This document shows positions 3,001 through 36,699 of a DNA stretch of 48,532 nt, one piece after another; position 1 is the stretch's first letter; the number at the start of each line of letters is the position of its first letter. Both the position numbers and the translations under genes were made by a program. The stretch is from a virus (Duplodnaviria; Caudoviricetes). The stretch covers positions 1-48,532 of IMG/VR virus record IMGVR_UViG_3300031860_000003. One strand, 5' to 3'. Under the pieces are notes generated by a model. It ran no database searches and was not told the DNA's origin. It worked only from the letters and a program-made list of their open reading frames with translations.

Positions 3001-3556
3001 CCGGCGGGAAACCGATGGAGCCCAGAATCGCGTCAATGACGGCCTGCGCGCTGCCCAGCGTCTCACCGATGATGTCCATCGCGATGTTCTCGATCGGCAC
3101 GTACAAGCCCGGCAGCCCCGCCGACGTGGAGGCGTCCTGCACCAGGAACGCCAGCAACTCGGTCGGCTTGAGCTGGCCGGTGACGAAGTCGTGCACGACC
3201 GTCTGCGCCTGGAAGTCGACGGTGCCGAAAAGCCCGACGCCGACCCCGACGAACGACTCGATGTCGCGGAAGTATTGGCCGAGGTAGGGCCAGTTGAGCG
3301 GCGAGAGCTGGTCGAAGACGTTCGGCAGGTTCGCCAGGTCCTTCAGCAGCTCGGCGAGCGGGATGCCGAGGATCTGGCCGATCAGCTCCTCCAGCAGCTG
3401 CAGGAACTGGTTCGAGGCACCGCGGGCCTGCTTGCCGATGACGTCCTGCAGGCCCTCGTCGAGCTGGTTCAGGGGATTCTTGTTGACCTGGAACAGGTTG
3501 GTGCCGGTGATCGGGACTTGCCCCGAGAACAGGTCGATCGCGCCGAAGGCCGCCAT
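2..3556 (-). CDS. Large minor tail protein, runs off the left edge (>1180 aa)
   Basis: Manually read open frame from ATG 3556 (MAAFGAIDLFSGQ...); absent from the ORF track because no stop lies in the window. Repeated LD(A/T)(S/T)KI(I/T/A)(S/T)G motifs typical of mycobacteriophage minor tails; a CBM/galactose-binding-like segment (WQQMSGTYTVPAGVDSVRL). Confidence 0.85.
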   Translation of the reverse strand, partial: MAAFGAIDLFSGQVPITGTNLFQVNKNPLNQLDEGLQDVIGKQARGASNQFLQLLEELIGQILGIPLAELLKDLANLPNVFDQLSPLNWPYLGQYFRDIESFVGVGVGLFGTVDFQAQTVVHDFVTGQLKPTELLAFLVQDASTSAGLPGLYVPIENIAMDIIGETLGSAQAVIDAILGSIGFPPGSGTANEVNQMFNDLMSMLANPPLTSEGFNAQLAVADFIKVMMWPTGLVAGLAEDATIKLGLKGFIPMENLAINLINEAVGGGQAIIDSILSTVGFPPGVGTPAEVQTYFSQLLQMLGFPPLTSGLFHPDTAVQNFITTMLIPQGLLAPLDASGFIPQINLPNLDTSKITSGVFANSFVPGLAQIHNAVANSQGGPPSGNTLTTMQYWLTQIPGVNIVTPILATIVPALDATKIATGQFAQSMVTNLVSDLGTALGGVEAGSTQQIITAITDLPAGTITDLTNYINSLESILGTTSSALLTIPFNSVNAVINFINTMLAPTNLLAPLAPLGAGFAVPAINIPGLDASKITSGIFSPPQIPGLDASKIISGIFGQWSLPNLSVGQIGNFLPNLLSNATYATGASVNAGGMWSWISSISHTADGSGAVQAIANGTLGQLFSDPPCFVSVGQTLTCSHWIQWTGCTGTGTCFKLSLACYLLGVLQSVVDLASIGGPLLAGSRGTASWQQMSGTYTVPAGVDSVRLLLQVMPSVTAGTIQWDDGSITKTGLFSTDWTAGLTGTLSNINTQMIARMLQTDAIALVNALGLGSFTDIPSSITPITNRLQGISAGGILSAGYVAGLDASKIISGLLSPGLIPSLPAGWAGTLDASLVSGTTAAQTELQSAMVTTLGGIPSLIGSDINAVQTVLNAVPLPNVTGPPTWGMGNALSSIQGFANTLYDGLVGNPSGLAARSGDIAPPAISYGQANAVSTLDSAHSIATQANNNLIARSGQKAISAGIDPTGDSVFNFAALTGTTTPTITLTNNVPACGIIATPDGGIKESIRWFGGNATGTISGFYLNIYSISTTTGAQTLMYASPDIHASISTGPTLVWNSYNLPSASYVTTQPGHYYVAEMIMVGTGAYSVAGVQHQVTPQPGVFPAGQMALTRNLSTSGGIAPATLPPPSSSGPVQYSSSIPYLQLSGSPGTSQYSAVSAAYLSAGTYHFQIPPWMVTLGTGKVDIA

Positions 3557-3560
3557 AGGC

Positions 3561-5063
3561 TCACCGCCCGCGCCGTCTGGTTCCGCCTGCCAGCGCCGGC
3601 GTCATCATCATCGACGGCTCGCTGACCGGGACCACCATCACGAAGCCCTGCGCGTCGGTCGGGCTGAACTGATACAGGCCGATAGCACCGTCGTTGAACA
3701 GGTTGAAGTACAGGGTGCCCTCGGCCGGGTTGGAGTGATTCGCCGGCACCACCGCCAGCCCGTTGGTCGGGGTGATCGCGTTACCCGGATTGCTCGGATC
3801 GGAATAGTGCGGCATACAGTTCACTTCGCCCAGGTCGTTGCCGAAGCCGCGGCCGATCAGCGCGCCCGACGTCGGGTCGCCCAGGCGGATCTCCACACCG
3901 ATCTGCAGCGGGTTGGCCGAGAGCTCGAGGCCGAACGCACCGAGATGGCCCCACACCACCGGGGTCCACGGAAAGGCTTGCGGCGGAATCGGAAACGAGC
4001 CGATCGCGGCGCGCTGGGATAGGCCACTAAAGCCGGTGAACGAAGCCTCCGGCATGGAGTAGGGCGAGGGGATCAGCTGGGAGATCGCCACCGGCACCCA
4101 GACCGGGTAGTTCACCGTGGCACCGTTGGTGGCGGGCGGGGTCGCCAGTGTGCCCGTCGCCCCGGTGTCGGCGTAGGCGTTGGTGGTGACGGTGGCGATC
4201 AGGTGGTTCTCGCCGCCCGAGGCCAGGCCGCGGTAGAGGTTGTAGCTGTCCGCGCCCGGCACCGTGTCCCAGATCAGGTTGGCGGTCGATCCGGTGCCCA
4301 CCGTGGTCGAGCACTCGTTGGACGGAGTGGACTCCCCGGCCGCCGAGTTGACCGTGACCATCCAGAAGTATTCGCCGGACAGGCTGCCGCCGGAGGACAG
4401 GTGCGACACCGCCAGCCCGGTGGGCGGGCTGAGGTGACCGGCCACGGTGCGCCCGGTGTAGCCCAGCACGTCGCCGGGTGCCACGCCGCCGGACAGGTCG
4501 ACGTCGGGGCACAGCGCCATCGCCGGCGCCGGCCCGGTCGGGCCGACCGGGATGGACAGGTTCATGTTCCACGTCGGATACAGCGGGGTGCCGCCGATCG
4601 GGTCCACGTAGGACGCCATATCGGGCGGGATGATGTCCACCGACGGGGTGATGATCGGGCACGGTCCCGGCGGCCCGGGGGTGCCCAGCATGACCCGCCG
4701 CCAGCTCAGCCCGTACCAGATGTAGGCCGACGCCCCGATGATCGCGCCCTTGGAGTCCACGTCGTCGAGCAGCCAGAACTTGCCGATGTCGGCCTGGCTG
4801 TTCTGCAGCGTCTGCGGCAGGTCGCTCGGGTCGTCGACGCTCATGTCGTTTTCGAGCTTGAGCGCGAACGCCGCCGGGCCGGGCACGCCCTGATCGCCCA
4901 CCACCGCCGGGAACACCAGCGACCCGATGTCCCCGTAAATCTCGTAGGTCCCCGAGAACGGGGACTGTGAGTCGGGCGGGATGACCGACCCGAACAGGTA
5001 GGTGCCGACCAGGTAGGAGGCCACGAAGGACTGGTCGCCGGGGGCCGAGAGTGAGGTTGTCAT
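3561..5063 (-). CDS. Minor tail protein with short collagen-like GxxG motifs and an FN3-like insert
   Basis: 500 aa; GTPGPPGP; PPTGLAVS...YNLYRG...YADTG FN3-like pattern; position after the hub gene. Confidence 0.8.
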   Translation of the reverse strand: MTTSLSAPGDQSFVASYLVGTYLFGSVIPPDSQSPFSGTYEIYGDIGSLVFPAVVGDQGVPGPAAFALKLENDMSVDDPSDLPQTLQNSQADIGKFWLLDDVDSKGAIIGASAYIWYGLSWRRVMLGTPGPPGPCPIITPSVDIIPPDMASYVDPIGGTPLYPTWNMNLSIPVGPTGPAPAMALCPDVDLSGGVAPGDVLGYTGRTVAGHLSPPTGLAVSHLSSGGSLSGEYFWMVTVNSAAGESTPSNECSTTVGTGSTANLIWDTVPGADSYNLYRGLASGGENHLIATVTTNAYADTGATGTLATPPATNGATVNYPVWVPVAISQLIPSPYSMPEASFTGFSGLSQRAAIGSFPIPPQAFPWTPVVWGHLGAFGLELSANPLQIGVEIRLGDPTSGALIGRGFGNDLGEVNCMPHYSDPSNPGNAITPTNGLAVVPANHSNPAEGTLYFNLFNDGAIGLYQFSPTDAQGFVMVVPVSEPSMMMTPALAGGTRRRGR

Positions 5064-6663
5064 GGCACCACCCTTTGTGCGGTTGCTTGCAGGAAGCCCT
5101 CCCCGGAGAACAGCGGATAGGCCACGCCCTGTGGCGGTTTGGCGATCGGCCCCATCGGCTGCACCATGACGAACAACTGGGCCGCGGACGGGTTGAAGTC
5201 ATAGACCCCGATCTGGCCGTCGTTCCACAGGTTCGTATAGAGGGTGCCCATCGCCGGGTCGGTGTGGTTGGCCGGCACCACCGCGTAGCCGTTGGTCGGG
5301 GTGAGGGAGCGGTTCCGGTTGTTCTGGTTGTTCGCGCTCGAGGAGTAGTGCGGGTAGATGTTGATCCGGCCCAGCGTGTTGCCGATCCCGCGGGCCACCT
5401 GGATGCCCTGGGTGGGGTCGCCGAGCAGCACCTGCGCGCCGATCCGGAACGGATCGCCGGTGATGAATTCCAGCACGTCGTTGATCAGGTTGCCGCCGGA
5501 GTCGATGATGCCGATCACCGCCGACGACAGATCCGGTGGGATCAGGTTGGTGATGTCGGTGACGATCGGCGCGATCACCTGGGCGCCCAGCGTGTTGACG
5601 AACTCCAGCAGGGTGTTCGCCGCGCCCTGCAGGGTGGCGTTGATGTTGTTGACACCGACCGTGACCAGGTTCTCCAGGAATCCCTCGATGGTGGCCGGGT
5701 CGGCGTTGTAGGGGATCGGTGGGGTGGTGGCGCCGCCGACCGACAGGGTGAACGTGCCGCCCAGCGCGGTCACCTTGAGCAGCTGCTGGACGACGCGACC
5801 TGGGTGGTGTCCGTGCCGCCCAGGTGACCCCACACGATCGGCGTCCACGGATAGGGCTGCGGCGGGATCTGGAAGGAGCCGACACCGACCTGCTGGGCTA
5901 CCCCGCTGTAGGAGGCGAACGAGCCCTCCGGCATCGACCAGGTGGTCGGCAGCTGCGCGCCGATGCCGCCCGGGGCCCAGACCTCCTGGCCGGCCGCGGT
6001 GTAGCGCCCGGTGAACATCATCAGGTCCCCGTTGACCGGCGCGGCGGTGATTTCGTCGACGTCGGGGAAGTCGAAGATCGGGGTGGTCTGCCCGCACTGG
6101 CCGGCCGGGGCGGCCAGCTCGAACTCCCACGTCGGCGAGAGCCGCGGCCCGGAGGTGTTGACGAAGGACTTGTTCGGGTTGTTGCTCTCGTCGTAGGGCG
6201 GGATCAAATCGACGATCGGGGTGATGGCCGGCACCGGACCCGGCGGCCCGAAGCTGCCCATCATCATCCGGCGGTAGGCGGTGCCGTACCAGATGTACAT
6301 CGTCTGGCCGATCACCTGGCCCTGGTCGTTGAGGTCCTGCAGGACGTAGTAGCGCCCGATGTAGTCGGGGTTGTTGGGCAGCGGGACCAGGTCGGCCTCG
6401 GAGTTGACGGTGGGGTCGACGACCTCGCGGACCTGGAAGCCGATCTGGCCGGGCGGCCCCTGCGGGCCCTGCAGCGCGGCTTTGTCCAGGTCGCCCTGGT
6501 CGGCCATCACCTTCAGCGCCGCGGTGTAGCCGTTCGGGGTGTCGGGCATGGTGGTTTCGGCCGACACGTCCAGCTTGACGACGCAGTGGCCCAGCGGCAC
6601 CAGCTCGCCCAGCTGCGGCGGCGCCGGCGTCGGCACGCCCAGCGGATCCATCAGCGACGTCAC
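5060..6663 (-). CDS. Minor tail protein paralogous to 3561-5063, split by a 1-nt frameshift near 5795
   Basis: N-terminal part in ORF 5770-6663 and C-terminal part in the frame of ORF 5060-6670; both halves are collinear with the 500-aa neighbour. Confidence 0.8.
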
Positions 6664-7355
6664 GGCTCACCTCCGTGTCCGTTGGTGGACACCGAGTCGT
6701 GTGGACAGGACTCGTTTGGCTCCAGGGCCCTGCCGCAGACCGAGCAGACCCACTCCTCGGTGATCACCGGCGTGACCGCCCAGCCGCCCAGGTCCTGGGG
6801 CGGGTCGCCGTCGCGCTGCGCGGCCAGCCGCCGGGTGTCGGGCGGCAGATGGTGATCGCTCGAGCGGTGCTCGGGCAACAGTTCCTCGGCGGCGTCATCG
6901 GCGGCGCGGGCGTCCACCCAGGTGTAGGCACCCTCCGTCACGCCGGGGCCGCCGTAGTGGCGCTTCTTGATGTAGCAGCGGCCGCTCGAGCGGAAGCCCA
7001 GCAGCGCCAGCGTCCAGGCGATCGCCACCTTGGGCTGCGTCATGTGCACCCCGGACAGGTCGACGACGTGCCCGTCGGGGTCGTTGGGGTAGTCCAGGTT
7101 GTGATAAATCTCGATATAGGCGGCCTGCACCTTGAGGATCTCCTGCGCGCGCTTGCGCTCCTCGCCCTGCAATCCGGCCTGCTCGATGGTCTTGGGCGTC
7201 AGCTCGCCGTACTCGCCGAACTGCAACTTTGGCACCCCGCGCGAGCCCGCGTAGGGGTTGGTGCCGGAGAACCCGTAGCGCGAGCTGCCGATGCGGTTAT
7301 TGGAGCGCCCCGGCCCTTGCCGCGGTACGCCTTCCACTATGTTCTCGTCGTCCAT
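6660..7355 (-). CDS. Tail-region protein, possibly mycobacteriophage gene-29/DUF2744-like
   Basis: 231 aa, coupled to both neighbours; AWTLALLGFR segment and synteny. Confidence 0.55.
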   Translation of the reverse strand: MDDENIVEGVPRQGPGRSNNRIGSSRYGFSGTNPYAGSRGVPKLQFGEYGELTPKTIEQAGLQGEERKRAQEILKVQAAYIEIYHNLDYPNDPDGHVVDLSGVHMTQPKVAIAWTLALLGFRSSGRCYIKKRHYGGPGVTEGAYTWVDARAADDAAEELLPEHRSSDHHLPPDTRRLAAQRDGDPPQDLGGWAVTPVITEEWVCSVCGRALEPNESCPHDSVSTNGHGGEP

Positions 7356-32727: not shown

Positions 32728-32799
32728 TGCGCCCGGTCGGGCTCGAACCGACGTCTCAGGATTAAAAGTCGAGAGCTAAACCATCTCAGCTACGGGCGC
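32728..32799 (-). tRNA. tRNA-Lys(TTT), two anticodon-stem mismatches
   Basis: Loop CTTTTAA; stem CTCGA/TCCTG. Confidence 0.82.
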
Positions 32800-32841
32800 C
32801 TGATTGGGCATGCGTTCAGGCTCCGGTTTACGCTGTCGCAT
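32776..32841 (-). CDS. Candidate leader peptide MRQRKPEPERMPNQAPVAEMV
   Basis: GAAGGAG SD, TATACT -10 at 32876-32881; codons match the downstream tRNAs. Confidence 0.7.
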   Translation of the reverse strand: MRQRKPEPERMPNQAPVAEMV

Positions 32842-32907
32842 TTCAGGCTCCTTCCGTGCTCGGGATGTCGCGTTGAGTATAACCTCCCACCGCGCCACAC
32901 TGGCGCA

Positions 32908-33954
32908 ATGGACGCTCAATCCCCGCCGCCGCCGGCGATCCCCGCCGATGACGACGAGCTGCACCAGATGCTGGTCGCCAAATTCCGCAGCCGCACCATC
33001 AGCTCCTGGGCGCTCACCGCACCCGCCATCCCCAGCCTGATCGACGAGTACATCGACACATGCGACAAGATGCTCGTCCCGGTGTCCCGGCCCTGGGCGT
33101 CGTTGACCCGCGAGGACAAGCGCGACATGCTCGCGCCCACCATCCAGGAGGCATTCGACGCCTCCCCCCGGTCGCGCGTCACCCTCGACTGGGATTCCAA
33201 CACCGACGTCCTGCGTATCTCCGCGCGGGTCCAGAGCATCAGCGACAGCTACGACTCCTGGCTGGACGATCGCGGCTGGGCCCCGTTCGGCACCCACGCC
33301 GACGCGCGCGTGTGGCTGTTGGCCGAAGAACTCTCGGGGGGCCGGCGCGACATCCCCATCCTGGACATCGGCGCCGGCGTCGGCCGCAACGCGATCGCGC
33401 TGGCCCGGCACGGCTACCCGGTCGATGCGGTCGAGCTGGCCCCGCGGTTCGCCGCGCAGATCCGTGCCAACGCCGACTACCTGGAGCTGACCAACATCCG
33501 CGTCCTGGCCTGCGACGTGTTCGACACCGAGGACCTGCGCGACGACTATCAGCTGATCTTCGCCGCCGAGGTGGCCACCGACTGGCAGTTCGCCCAGTGC
33601 CGCAACCTGTTCGAGCTCGCCGCCAAGCGGTTGGCTCCCGGTGGCCTGCTGCTGTTCTCCGCGTTCATCGCGCGGCAGGGTTACACCCCCACCCAGGTGG
33701 CGCGCGAGCTCGGCCAGCACGCCCTGTGCCGCCCGTTCACCGCCGACGAGATGACCGAGGCGGCGGCGGGCCTGCCGCTCGAGCTGATCGCCGACGACTC
33801 GGTCTACGACTACGAGAAGGGGCACCTGCCCAAGGAGGCGTGGCCGCCTGCAATATGGTTCGAGGCTTGGGCCACCGGCAACAACCTGTTCGCCGGCGCG
33901 CCCGATGCGTCCCCGATGCAGCTGCGCTGGCTGGTCTACCGGCGCAACTACTGA
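32908..33954 (+). CDS. Class I SAM-dependent methyltransferase
   Basis: ILDIGAGVGRN motif I, VDAVEL and LAPGGLL; high GC3. Confidence 0.9.
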   Translation: MDAQSPPPPAIPADDDELHQMLVAKFRSRTISSWALTAPAIPSLIDEYIDTCDKMLVPVSRPWASLTREDKRDMLAPTIQEAFDASPRSRVTLDWDSNTDVLRISARVQSISDSYDSWLDDRGWAPFGTHADARVWLLAEELSGGRRDIPILDIGAGVGRNAIALARHGYPVDAVELAPRFAAQIRANADYLELTNIRVLACDVFDTEDLRDDYQLIFAAEVATDWQFAQCRNLFELAAKRLAPGGLLLFSAFIARQGYTPTQVARELGQHALCRPFTADEMTEAAAGLPLELIADDSVYDYEKGHLPKEAWPPAIWFEAWATGNNLFAGAPDASPMQLRWLVYRRNY

Positions 33955-34047: not shown

Positions 34048-34117
34048 TGCCCCCGAGTGGAGTCGAACCACCGCAACCGAGTTTCGGAAACTCAGGGCCA
34101 GATCCGCTGGCGAAGGC
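34048..34117 (-). tRNA. tRNA-Arg(CCG), atypical D arm
   Basis: Loop TTCCGAA; D hairpin CCAG/CTGG directly abuts the acceptor stem. Confidence 0.7.
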
Positions 34118-34148: not shown

Positions 34149-34222
34149 CCCCGCCGGAGGGATTCGAACCCCCATTTCATGGCTTAGAACACCACCGCTG
34201 ATCCAGATTCAGCTACGGCGGG
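34149..34222 (-). tRNA. tRNA-Arg(TCT)
   Basis: Cloverleaf; loop GTTCTAA. Confidence 0.82.
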
Positions 34223-34271
34223 CAGGCGAGACTGAGCGTTGTCGCCTTCGTCTCGCCTGCCGTCGCATCAT
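34209..34271 (-). CDS. Candidate leader peptide MMRRQARRRRQRSVSPARRS
   Basis: GGTGAGG SD; uses all six Arg codons and both Gln codons. Confidence 0.7.
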   Translation of the reverse strand: MMRRQARRRRQRSVSPARRS

Positions 34272-34350
34272 GACCTCACCTAACCGAACCAGACCACAGC
34301 CTGCCGTGCCCTATCATGCCCGACCTTGCCAGACCTATCCGGACCGGACC
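34271..34350 (-). repeat. GGY-NN pentamer array 2 (13 of 16 units perfect)
   Basis: Minus strand GGTCC GGTCC GGATA GGTCT GGCAA GGTCG GGCAT GATAG GGCAC GGCAG GCTGT GGTCT GGTTC GGTTA GGTGA GGTCA. Confidence 0.88.
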
Positions 34351-34371
34351 ATACGGCATCACATCACTGCG

Positions 34372-34595: not shown

Positions 34596-34671
34596 AGGTG
34601 GGCAACTCCCCTCCGACGAGAGGGGCGGCAGTTACCAGATCCGTAGCTGGGTTCGCCGATGGTAGTTACCC
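34596..34671 (-). ncRNA. Unknown structured RNA, copy A
   Basis: Fills the Gly-Asp spacer; homologous to 35673-35769. Confidence 0.55.
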
Positions 34672-34745: not shown

Positions 34746-34774
34746 CTGCGCTTCGCTGATTCAGTTATTGTACG

Positions 34775-34850
34775 AGCCGCAGACAGGAATCGAACCTGCG
34801 CTCTGCTTGCTTACAAGGCAAGTGCTACAGCCAACATGAGCTACTGCGGC
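34775..34850 (-). tRNA. tRNA-Thr(TGT)
   Basis: Cloverleaf; loop CTTGTAA. Confidence 0.88.
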
Positions 34851-34853
34851 CTG

Positions 34854-34926
34854 TGCGCTCGGCAGGGATCGAACCTGCGGCCTGAAGATTAAGAGTCAAC
34901 AGCTCTACCGACTGAGCTACGAGCGC
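34854..34926 (-). tRNA. tRNA-Lys(CTT), two anticodon-stem mismatches
   Basis: Loop CTCTTAA; stem GTTGA/TCTTC. Confidence 0.85.
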
Positions 34927-34985
34927 GGATCAACCGGGGCGGTCGTCGGCTTTCGCCGCCCCTGTGTGCGCGTTCGTCGCATCAT
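34917..34985 (-). CDS. Candidate leader peptide MMRRTRTQGRRKPTTAPVDPRS
   Basis: AAG plus four Thr codons directly upstream of tRNA-Lys(CTT) and tRNA-Thr(TGT). Confidence 0.6.
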   Translation of the reverse strand: MMRRTRTQGRRKPTTAPVDPRS

Positions 34986-34986
34986 G

Positions 34987-35672: not shown

Positions 35673-35769
35673 GGTGGTGGCGCTCCCCTCCGGCGAGAGG
35701 GGCGACACGCTCCCCGAGTGGGGAGCTCATACCGGAACCGTAGCCGGATTGGCCGTTGGTAGCGTCACC
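35673..35769 (-). ncRNA. Unknown structured RNA, copy B
   Basis: Homologous to 34596-34671 with an extra hairpin; starts 7 nt after TGGACC-N17-TACCGT. Confidence 0.55.
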
Positions 35770-35816
35770 GTGTACCACGGTAAACCCTGCCGCCGACAAG
35801 GTCCATCCATTTTCCG

Positions 35817-36080: not shown

Positions 36081-36116
36081 CTAGCGCCAGGGATACGGTC
36101 GTGGGGCGAAGAACAT
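36081..36116 (-). CDS. Candidate leader peptide MFFAPRPYPWR
   Basis: TATGAT 7 nt before the ATG (leaderless spacing); Pro/Tyr/Trp codons upstream of tRNA-Pro, -Trp and -Tyr. Confidence 0.72.
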   Translation of the reverse strand: MFFAPRPYPWR

Positions 36117-36132
36117 GGTGATCATCATAGCG

Positions 36133-36358: not shown

Positions 36359-36387
36359 AGGTTTCTTGTTTCTTTGTTTCGTAAAAG

Positions 36388-36476
36388 CGGAGGGCGGAGG
36401 TCATGCTCCCCGAGCGCCATCACGCGCTACCCGGTATTCGACGCCGGTCGCAGGCTATCCCGCTGCTTCACCCTCC
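36388..36476 (-). tRNA. tRNA-Ser(CGA), atypical T arm
   Basis: Loop GTCGAAT; long variable arm AGCGC/GCGCT; T arm lacks TTC. Confidence 0.7.
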
Positions 36477-36566: not shown

Positions 36567-36614
36567 TTAGCTAAGTCGTAAGGGACTAGATGACAGCAAT
36601 CGGTGGTCGCGCAC
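36567..36614 (-). CDS. Candidate leader peptide MRDHRLLSSSPLRLS
   Basis: TACACT 7 nt before the GTG; 8 Leu/Ser codons upstream of the Ser/Leu tRNAs. Confidence 0.75.
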   Translation of the reverse strand: MRDHRLLSSSPLRLS

Positions 36615-36631
36615 GTCAAGCAGTGTAGCAG

Positions 36632-36699
36632 TGCCGCACAAGGGATTTGAACCCTTCCCGTTCGCTTGGTTAGGGCTCACGGTCTGCCGTCGGTGCGGC
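36632..36699 (-). ncRNA. tRNA-like element or pseudo-tRNA
   Basis: Perfect 7-bp acceptor and AAGGG-TTCAAAT-CCCTT T arm; no canonical anticodon arm. Confidence 0.5.

Follow-up and report, generated by a model that had tools for sequence, protein, structure and literature searches.

An open reading frame of 22 codons, lying between the tRNA-Val(GAC) and tRNA-Lys(CTT) genes of a viral tRNA array, is on the evidence of its sequence a real conserved element. It carries codons of both tRNAs that follow it and is most likely a codon-sensing leader of a new type, with an unusual predicted output. We consider it highly probable that this Lys/Thr leader is translated and acts as a codon-specific sensor. 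We favour, with moderate confidence, a ribosome-read sensor in which a predicted helix, joining the first codons of the leader to the 5' strand of tRNA-Lys, would gate how tRNA-Lys(CTT) and tRNA-Thr(TGT) mature.

The window, i.e. the whole stretch of 48,532 nucleotides that was analysed, is a virus record of 48.5 kb that contains genes for portal, protease, capsid, tape-measure and tail proteins. Its host is likely mycobacterial, because the terminase and the minor tail protein have their nearest relatives in the Mycobacterium phages Hilltopfarm, Typha and Bipper and in M. abscessus prophages (~48% and ~43%). The tRNA array consists of 28 called tRNA genes on the minus strand, upstream of the terminase gene.

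The Lys/Thr leader

The features around the leader are the following.

34917..34985, minus strand: Lys/Thr leader ORF, 22 codons, overlapping positions 1-10 of tRNA-Lys(CTT); start, frame and stop are kept in the relatives L003 and L004
34986..35058, minus strand: tRNA-Val(GAC), with no encoded CCA; its N73-C74 end abuts the leader ATG, and its 3' processing would give the leader 5' end
34854..34926, minus strand: tRNA-Lys(CTT), the first tRNA that would be gated; its positions 8-10 are the leader stop
34774..34850, minus strand: tRNA-Thr(TGT), second tRNA of the block, reading ACA/ACG
34767..34772, minus strand: -10-like TACAAT directly 3' of tRNA-Thr (TATGAT in L003 and L004), a putative promoter element that ends the Lys/Thr block
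34936..34962, minus strand: apex hairpin GGGGCGG(CG)/(CGA)CCGCCCC, with AAG (34950-34952) in the loop and no U tract after it
34970..34984, minus strand: predicted anti-tRNA arm (leader nt 2-16), which in the nascent RNA would form 12 pairs with tRNA-Lys nt 1-14

The ORF runs on the minus strand from an ATG at 34985 to a TAG at 34919-34917 and is translated as MMRRTRTQGRRKPTTAPVDPRS. An earlier note on this DNA had placed the start 1 nt past the discriminator of tRNA-Val(GAC) and the stop at positions 8-10 of tRNA-Lys(CTT), and both placements are correct (discriminator 34987, C74 34986, ATG 34985). The codons ACG, ACA, AAG, ACG and ACC that it listed are all in frame, and the AAG (34952-34950) is indeed located inside the 8-nt loop of the GC-rich stem. 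Under standard wobble the ACC is not decoded by the downstream tRNA-Thr(TGT). The fold of region 34915-34986 was better than those of 200/200 shuffles (z -2.79). A start shared with the Arg leader had also been proposed; the 11-mer ATGATGCGACG does occur twice in the window, at both ORFs, with 0.05 occurrences expected, but the shared start is not conserved, because among the 18 loci the 11-mer was found only in the two near-identical window copies.

Taken alone the leader is a modest signal, given that an open frame with AAG was obtained in 17% of dinucleotide shuffles and an open frame with AAG and three ACA/ACG codons in 3%. The leader contains a single AAG, which is a frequent codon (2.85% across ten genes of the window). 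The leader frame matches 2/2 of the block tRNAs and the other frames across the spacer match 0/2 and 1/2. What takes the leader beyond chance is conservation together with the sister leaders described below. At gathering score, and likewise with E values up to 5, the spacer gave no Rfam match, and no known ncRNA, T-box included, was recognised. A degenerate tRNA remnant was considered and rejected: the complementary arm is located at the 5' end of the spacer and pairs also with tRNA nt 8-14, unlike a tRNA 3' end.

Conservation in related arrays

A terminase search yielded 18 loci, 15 of which were scanned for tRNAs; L001, L006 and L043 are copies of the window and were left out of the counts. 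The Val-Lys junction is covered by L003 and L004 (terminase 85-86% identical) and L005 spans the later array only, and the evidence base is three independent sequences and four sister leader families. The earlier note had held that a lack of conservation in related arrays would speak against the leader. Both relatives keep the ATG right after N73-C74, the in-frame ACG, ACA and AAG and the same stop, and the proposal came through this comparison intact. The spacer measures 59 nt in the window and 59 and 62 nt in L003 and L004, and the peptides of the relatives are MMRTRTDQGRRKPTRRPDSARP and MGMLRTRTLGRRKPTRRPDSARP. In the 5' half of the leader 3-nt indels are the only differences among the three sequences; in the 3' half a compensated one-base shift alters the residues (TTAPVDP vs TRRPDSA in the last third) and the stop is retained. 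A second in-frame ATG is present in 3/3 copies.

The core 17-mer of the leader was found in 17 viral stretches, 4 of them from this clade, and a leader-plus-tRNA pattern search returned the same 4 clade stretches. One genome match was an unrelated tRNA-Arg(CCT) gene and was rejected. A metagenome scan gave nothing further beyond one identical copy, and no cultured phage or plasmid covering the tRNA array was found. A generic tRNA-C-ATG-tRNA pattern was matched by 34 stretches, with tRNAs on both sides in 11, of which 6 belong to this clade. In L106, an unrelated viral contig with a match at 722, an ATG directly after tRNA-Ala(CGC) opens a frame that contains four Ala codons and is followed by tRNA-Ala(GGC).

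Sister leaders and codon-block matching

Each array contains five short ORFs, each with codons of the tRNAs located from its own position to the next -10-like box. The four sister leaders of the window and a promoter-like sequence are listed here.

36567..36627, minus strand: sister leader 1; TACACT box, 7 nt, GTG; VRDHRLLSSSPLRLS; before Ser, Ser, Leu, Leu and Leu tRNAs
36081..36129, minus strand: sister leader 2; TATGAT box, 7 nt, ATG; MFFAPRPYPWR; before Pro, Trp and Tyr tRNAs
34209..34271, minus strand: sister leader 4 (Arg leader); MMRRQARRRRQRSVSPARRS, with CGG, AGA, AGG and CAA; before Arg(TCT), Arg(CCG) and Gln(TTG) tRNAs
32776..32881, minus strand: sister leader 5; TATACT box, SD GGAAGGAG, ATG 32841; MRQRKPEPERMPNQAPVAEMV; before Lys(TTT), Glu, Glu, Asn, Gln and Met tRNAs
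35777..35805, minus strand: promoter-like TGGACC-N17-TACCGT before tRNA-Cys, conserved in 3/3 arrays; probable start of the transcript containing the Lys/Thr leader

In the window, L003 and L004 the array is divided into blocks by TANNNT boxes, which are found each time ahead of the Pro leader and behind the Tyr, Thr and Gln(TTG) tRNAs. The assignment of the leader to Lys and Thr, made in the earlier note, agrees with this division, since its codons match the two tRNAs between the ORF and the next conserved -10-like box, with 2/2 block tRNAs covered in 3/3 arrays. Codon coverage in the window was 4/5 for Ser/Leu, 3/3 for Pro/Trp/Tyr, 2/2 for Lys/Thr, 3/3 for Arg/Arg/Gln and 6/6 for Lys/Glu/Glu/Asn/Gln/Met, and in each of the three arrays (window, L003 and L004), which are homologous, the true pairing of leaders to blocks ranked first among 120 permutations. 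The match extends to isoacceptors, AAG standing ahead of Lys(CTT) and AAA ahead of Lys(TTT). The Arg leader of L003 is located two tRNAs further upstream, before tRNA-Ile, where it has ATA/ATT codons and is predicted to pair with the tRNA-Ile 5' strand. No codon-matched leader was found at the Cys/His/Gly, Ala/Phe/Val and Gly/Asp blocks; a candidate ORF ahead of tRNA-Cys was rejected as a leader given that its frame is not conserved and that it is better read as promoter.

A mechanical ORF scan was added because the blocks had been drawn after the leaders were seen. It found a fully covering ORF before 11/23 multi-tRNA blocks in the clade vs 2/34 in other arrays, one of the latter in StAugustine. 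Grayson has one 2/2 fully covering ORF, which is probably due to chance, and none was found in Myrna, BeanWater, LeBron, StarPlatinum, Nanosmite, Rey, Sixama or the plasmid pCBMA213_1, nor in Neville, where 0 blocks qualified under the rule of the scan. StAugustine (PV251870.1, L049), a cultured mycobacteriophage, has two similar unannotated leaders at 3261-3332 and ~3905-3967. The first consists of a TATGCT box, 7 nt and an ATG followed by Trp, Gln and Asn codons, and has the same type of predicted hairpin into tRNA-Trp (z -2.89). The second (Thr/Ile/Arg) has an SD and mirrors 6/6 of the following tRNAs, and showed no switch in the modelled ribosome walk.

It could be argued that the ORF is translated but that a general stall (Arg-rich sequence, CGA, Arg-X-Arg) or a basic peptide is what matters, rather than a shortage of Lys and Thr tRNAs. 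CGA, an uncommon codon in the genes of this phage (0.74%), is present in all five leaders, and Arg/Lys-X-Arg/Lys is a macrolide arrest motif, which would favour this explanation. We nevertheless regard it as very improbable: the last third of the peptide differs between relatives by the compensated frameshift, the codon content tracks the tRNA block, and the peptide has no Pfam match.

Two observations concern the Arg leader. In L004 and L005 it begins directly after the tRNA, and in the window a 99-nt insert of short GG-rich repeats (34272-34370) lies between it and tRNA-Arg(ACG) and gives an SD-like AGGTGAGGT.

Predicted pairing of the leader with the tRNA 5' strand

When the nascent RNAs were folded, 7/7 of the Lys(CTT), Arg(TCT) and Ile leaders formed one long hairpin in which the first codons are joined at the base to the first 11-14 bases of the tRNA. 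To see how specific this pairing is, we joined every spacer computationally to 65 tRNA 5' ends and ranked its own tRNA among them. The Lys/Thr leaders of the three arrays ranked their own tRNA 5, 2 and 1 of 65. A rank within the top 7 was obtained for 12/16 leader spacers vs 1/21 other spacers of the same arrays and 1/68 spacers in nine other arrays (Fisher values 1e-5 and 2e-10, which overstate the strength because the rows are homologous and not independent). The 4/16 leader spacers outside the top 7 include the Ser and Lys(TTT) leaders of the window. The leader together with tRNA nt 1-14 gave fold z-scores of -2.7, -2.4 and -4.5; a simple count of paired tRNA bases was equalled by 28, 66 and 0 of 200 leader shuffles. 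RNAalifold recovered the leader:tRNA helix, with 0/20 pairs changed on both sides among the three sequences.

In the window and L003, the acceptor strand was sequestered at ~0.1 instead of ~0.85 once a modelled ribosome stood on codons 2-4, and a ribosome on codons 3-6 had this effect in L004. With the ribosome at AAG, the probability of the acceptor stem was 0.99, 0.93 and 0.56 when pairing across the ribosome was disallowed, and 0.99, 0.28 and 0.00 when pairing around it was allowed, i.e. the switch then fails in L003 and L004. The clearest switch was that of the Pro leader (sister leader 2), which has predicted alternative helices with the tRNA-Pro 5' strand as the last arm; sequestration of the tRNA-Pro acceptor went from 0.9-1.0 to 0.1-0.5 with the modelled ribosome on Pro and Tyr codons. 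In the full-length precursor of the window without a ribosome the cloverleaf is favoured (P 0.90; -48.8 vs -45.1 kcal/mol), and the off state there would therefore need kinetic trapping or unwinding by the ribosome.

Start signals and tRNA 3' processing

The earlier note had found no clear SD or -10 for the Lys/Thr leader, and in none of the three sequences (window, L003 and L004) did we observe a TANNNT at a distance of 11-15 nt upstream of the ATG. Scans of the leader gave neither a sigma-70 site nor a terminator-like site, and no U-tract intrinsic terminator was seen between 34985 and 34770 on the minus strand. A -10 box exactly 7 nt before the start is a property of the Ser/Leu and Pro/Trp/Tyr sister leaders and not of the Lys/Thr leader. 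CATGAT at the leader start was rejected as a -10 box, as it is not kept in L004 and lies 14 nt from the T-loop hexamer vs the usual 16-18 nt. Several -10-like boxes (window 36129, 34772 and 36627) are located 16-18 nt past the T-loop hexamer (TTCGAA/TTCGAT/TTCAAA) of the preceding tRNA, a spacing that looks as if the T loop served as -35 element.

An ATG or GTG directly follows 13/143 N73-C74 junctions vs 4% background, and six of these are leaders of this clade. In cultured actinophages, ORFs with KOW and HNH domains begin exactly after N73-C74. GTG-start frames at this place were seen in L074 (5268 and 5523), L077 (1322 and 3830), L075 (1632) and L076 (1453); some of these frames have KOW or HNH matches and 0 have a -10 box 11-15 nt upstream.

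RNase Z cuts CCA-less tRNA precursors after the discriminator. Mycobacterial RNase E, according to the accessible part of PMC10641625, cleaves 5' of a C with U three bases on, a signal that the C-A-U of the Lys/Thr leader fits in part. Cleavage by either enzyme would leave C-AUG, and we infer that ribosomes initiate there. Our literature searches turned up no description of initiation on such a processed C-AUG end, and the accessible part of PMC9569102 yielded nothing on tRNA 3' processing.

The RNase E signal also bears on the idea that the spacer is an untranslated, structured processing spacer, its C-A-U a nuclease signal and its ORF incidental. U is found at the RNase E-type place in 50/143 N73-C74 junctions, the GGC-GAAA-GCC tetraloop-type element of the invariant core would fix AAG too, and about 1/3 of frames reach a stop at tRNA positions 8-10. 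An untranslated spacer would, however, leave unexplained the 3-nt indels, the block-matched codons of five leaders and the Ile codons gained in L003. Moreover, ordinary spacers in other arrays avoid their own tRNA (median rank 42 of 65), whereas leader spacers seek it, and we judge this explanation quite improbable.

Proposed mechanism

Given the conserved cognate codons and the predicted pairing with tRNA-Lys, the tRNAs are likely matured only when ribosomes stall on the Lys and Thr codons. In the mechanism that we favour, tRNA-Val would be cut off at the discriminator by RNase Z or RNase E and the resulting RNA, starting with C-AUG, would be loaded by ribosomes as a near-leaderless message. 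If Thr and Lys codons are decoded fast, the ribosome would enter the tRNA, unwinding its acceptor strand, and depart after the stop at positions 8-10; the long leader:tRNA hairpin would then close, leaving no RNase P substrate, and the RNA would be lost. If ACG/ACA or AAG is decoded slowly, the stalled ribosome would mask the anti-tRNA arm or the apex hairpin while standing clear of the tRNA, and tRNA-Lys would fold and be excised. The loss of tRNA-Thr in the off state might occur by decay or by termination.

The same codon sensor might instead control transcription, which would end unless a ribosome stalls, either at the long hairpin of leader and tRNA or through the action of Rho on the misfolded tRNA. 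Such an output would directly explain why the leader mirrors the whole block up to the next -10-like box, tRNA-Thr included, and it is the simpler account of the loss of tRNA-Thr. It would also suit the sister leaders with their own -10 box, and uORF-controlled transcription attenuation works in mycobacteria (ilvB1, accessible part of PMC13236596). Against it, the leader has no U tract or terminator-like site, and because there is no -10 box or clear SD, the cut at tRNA-Val and ribosome loading would both have to occur before the polymerase moves ~70 nt. We consider this output unlikely, and maturation is preferred to termination because of the missing U tract and because the leader start depends on prior processing.

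Comparison with known systems

In the T-box riboswitch, a codon displayed in a loop senses the cognate tRNA. The Lys/Thr spacer differs in that it has no Rfam T-box match and in that its codon belongs to a reading frame whose start and stop are conserved.

As far as the accessible part of 10.1101/834739 describes them, mycobacterial leaderless-sORF attenuators (the polycysteine sORF Ms5788A) resemble the Lys/Thr leader in having a short ORF without SD and no intrinsic terminator, and in placing the sensor codons in a long duplex with the regulated element, which ribosome occupancy opens (predicted here). The hidden element there is a Shine-Dalgarno sequence, whereas here it would be the tRNA acceptor strand (predicted, nt 1-14) and the product a tRNA. 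The Lys/Thr leader further differs from the type so described in that its start has no promoter box and would be made when the tRNA ahead of it is processed.

Multivalent leader-peptide transcription attenuators have short ORFs with codons for each thing that the downstream genes supply, and mutually exclusive RNA structures are picked by ribosome position, as in M. tuberculosis ilvB1 in the accessible part of PMC13236596. For the Lys/Thr leader the candidate alternatives are the predicted anti-tRNA helix and the cloverleaf, with no two-sided covariation in the helix and with an outcome at AAG that varies with the ribosome model. Compared with that description, the Lys/Thr leader has no U-tract terminator, is internal to a transcript and overlaps the regulated gene, and the phage leaders mirror tRNA isoacceptors (AAG/Lys-CTT, AAA/Lys-TTT) and not amino acids alone. 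The absence of a terminator, a hidden SD and a promoter-made start places the Lys/Thr leader outside both attenuator classes. The thr and ilvGMEDA operons of E. coli are further multivalent attenuators of this kind.

The Anabaena trn operon with TrcR is an accessory tRNA array turned on under translational stress, a likeness to the array studied here; in the accessible part of PMC10272220 a DNA-binding repressor controls that array as a whole, as opposed to block-specific leaders here. A literature search, with most subscription journals outside its reach, found no paper on translated leaders controlling tRNA genes or on an acceptor-pairing output. The accessible parts of PMC5966550, on mycobacterial tRNA arrays, and of PMC10264068, on phage tRNAs, make no mention of leaders or promoters, nor does the latter mention attenuation.

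Somewhat more tentatively, the leader may represent a third attenuation output, in which processing makes a near-leaderless test message and the ribosome on it decides whether the next tRNA folds or forms a dead hairpin; isoacceptors depleted by the host might then be refilled blockwise without a terminator or a protein regulator. If so, tRNA folding or maturation would join termination and ribosome-binding-site exposure as outputs of attenuation, and tRNA 3' processing could yield translated near-leaderless messages. It has long been asked why phages have large tRNA arrays, and it has been proposed that these arrays offset tRNA depletion by host nucleases (accessible part of PMC10264068). Codon-sensing leaders, if real, would show the array answering tRNA shortage on demand, and their codons would name the tRNAs that the phage expects to lose. 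The idea can be tested directly in StAugustine, which has two leaders of similar type and for which M. smegmatis mc2 155 is a host.

Other features of the tRNA arrays

Searches for an integrase and for WhiB in the L003 record (61% complete) were empty, and at 6638-6735 this record has a tRNA-Arg(TCT) with an insertion of ~23 nt 3' of the anticodon arm. Three tRNA-like genes of the window (36631-36699, 36387-36476 and 34049-34113) were not called at default settings; they are a CTA-anticodon tRNA (called Pyl) and tRNA-Arg(CCG), both of which a relaxed ARAGORN score brings out, and a Ser(CGA)-like gene that is called in L004. A methyltransferase gene on the plus strand (window ~32906-33954) is an antisense insertion within the array, absent at the same place in L003, L004 and L005. 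Inserted between tRNAs at 34596-34671 and 35675-35775 of the window is a repeated element that has the form of a three-way junction, its terminal stem tRNA-like and its 3' end ACC; it gave no Rfam match, and L003 has two copies at 4574-4814. Finally, a CCGAGGCG...ATATCGG-type stem recurs just 5' of tRNA genes in L003 (5037-5114) and L004 (5025-5102), and it is found in cluster M phages too, before tRNA-Phe in L075 and L076 and before tRNA-Lys in L076.
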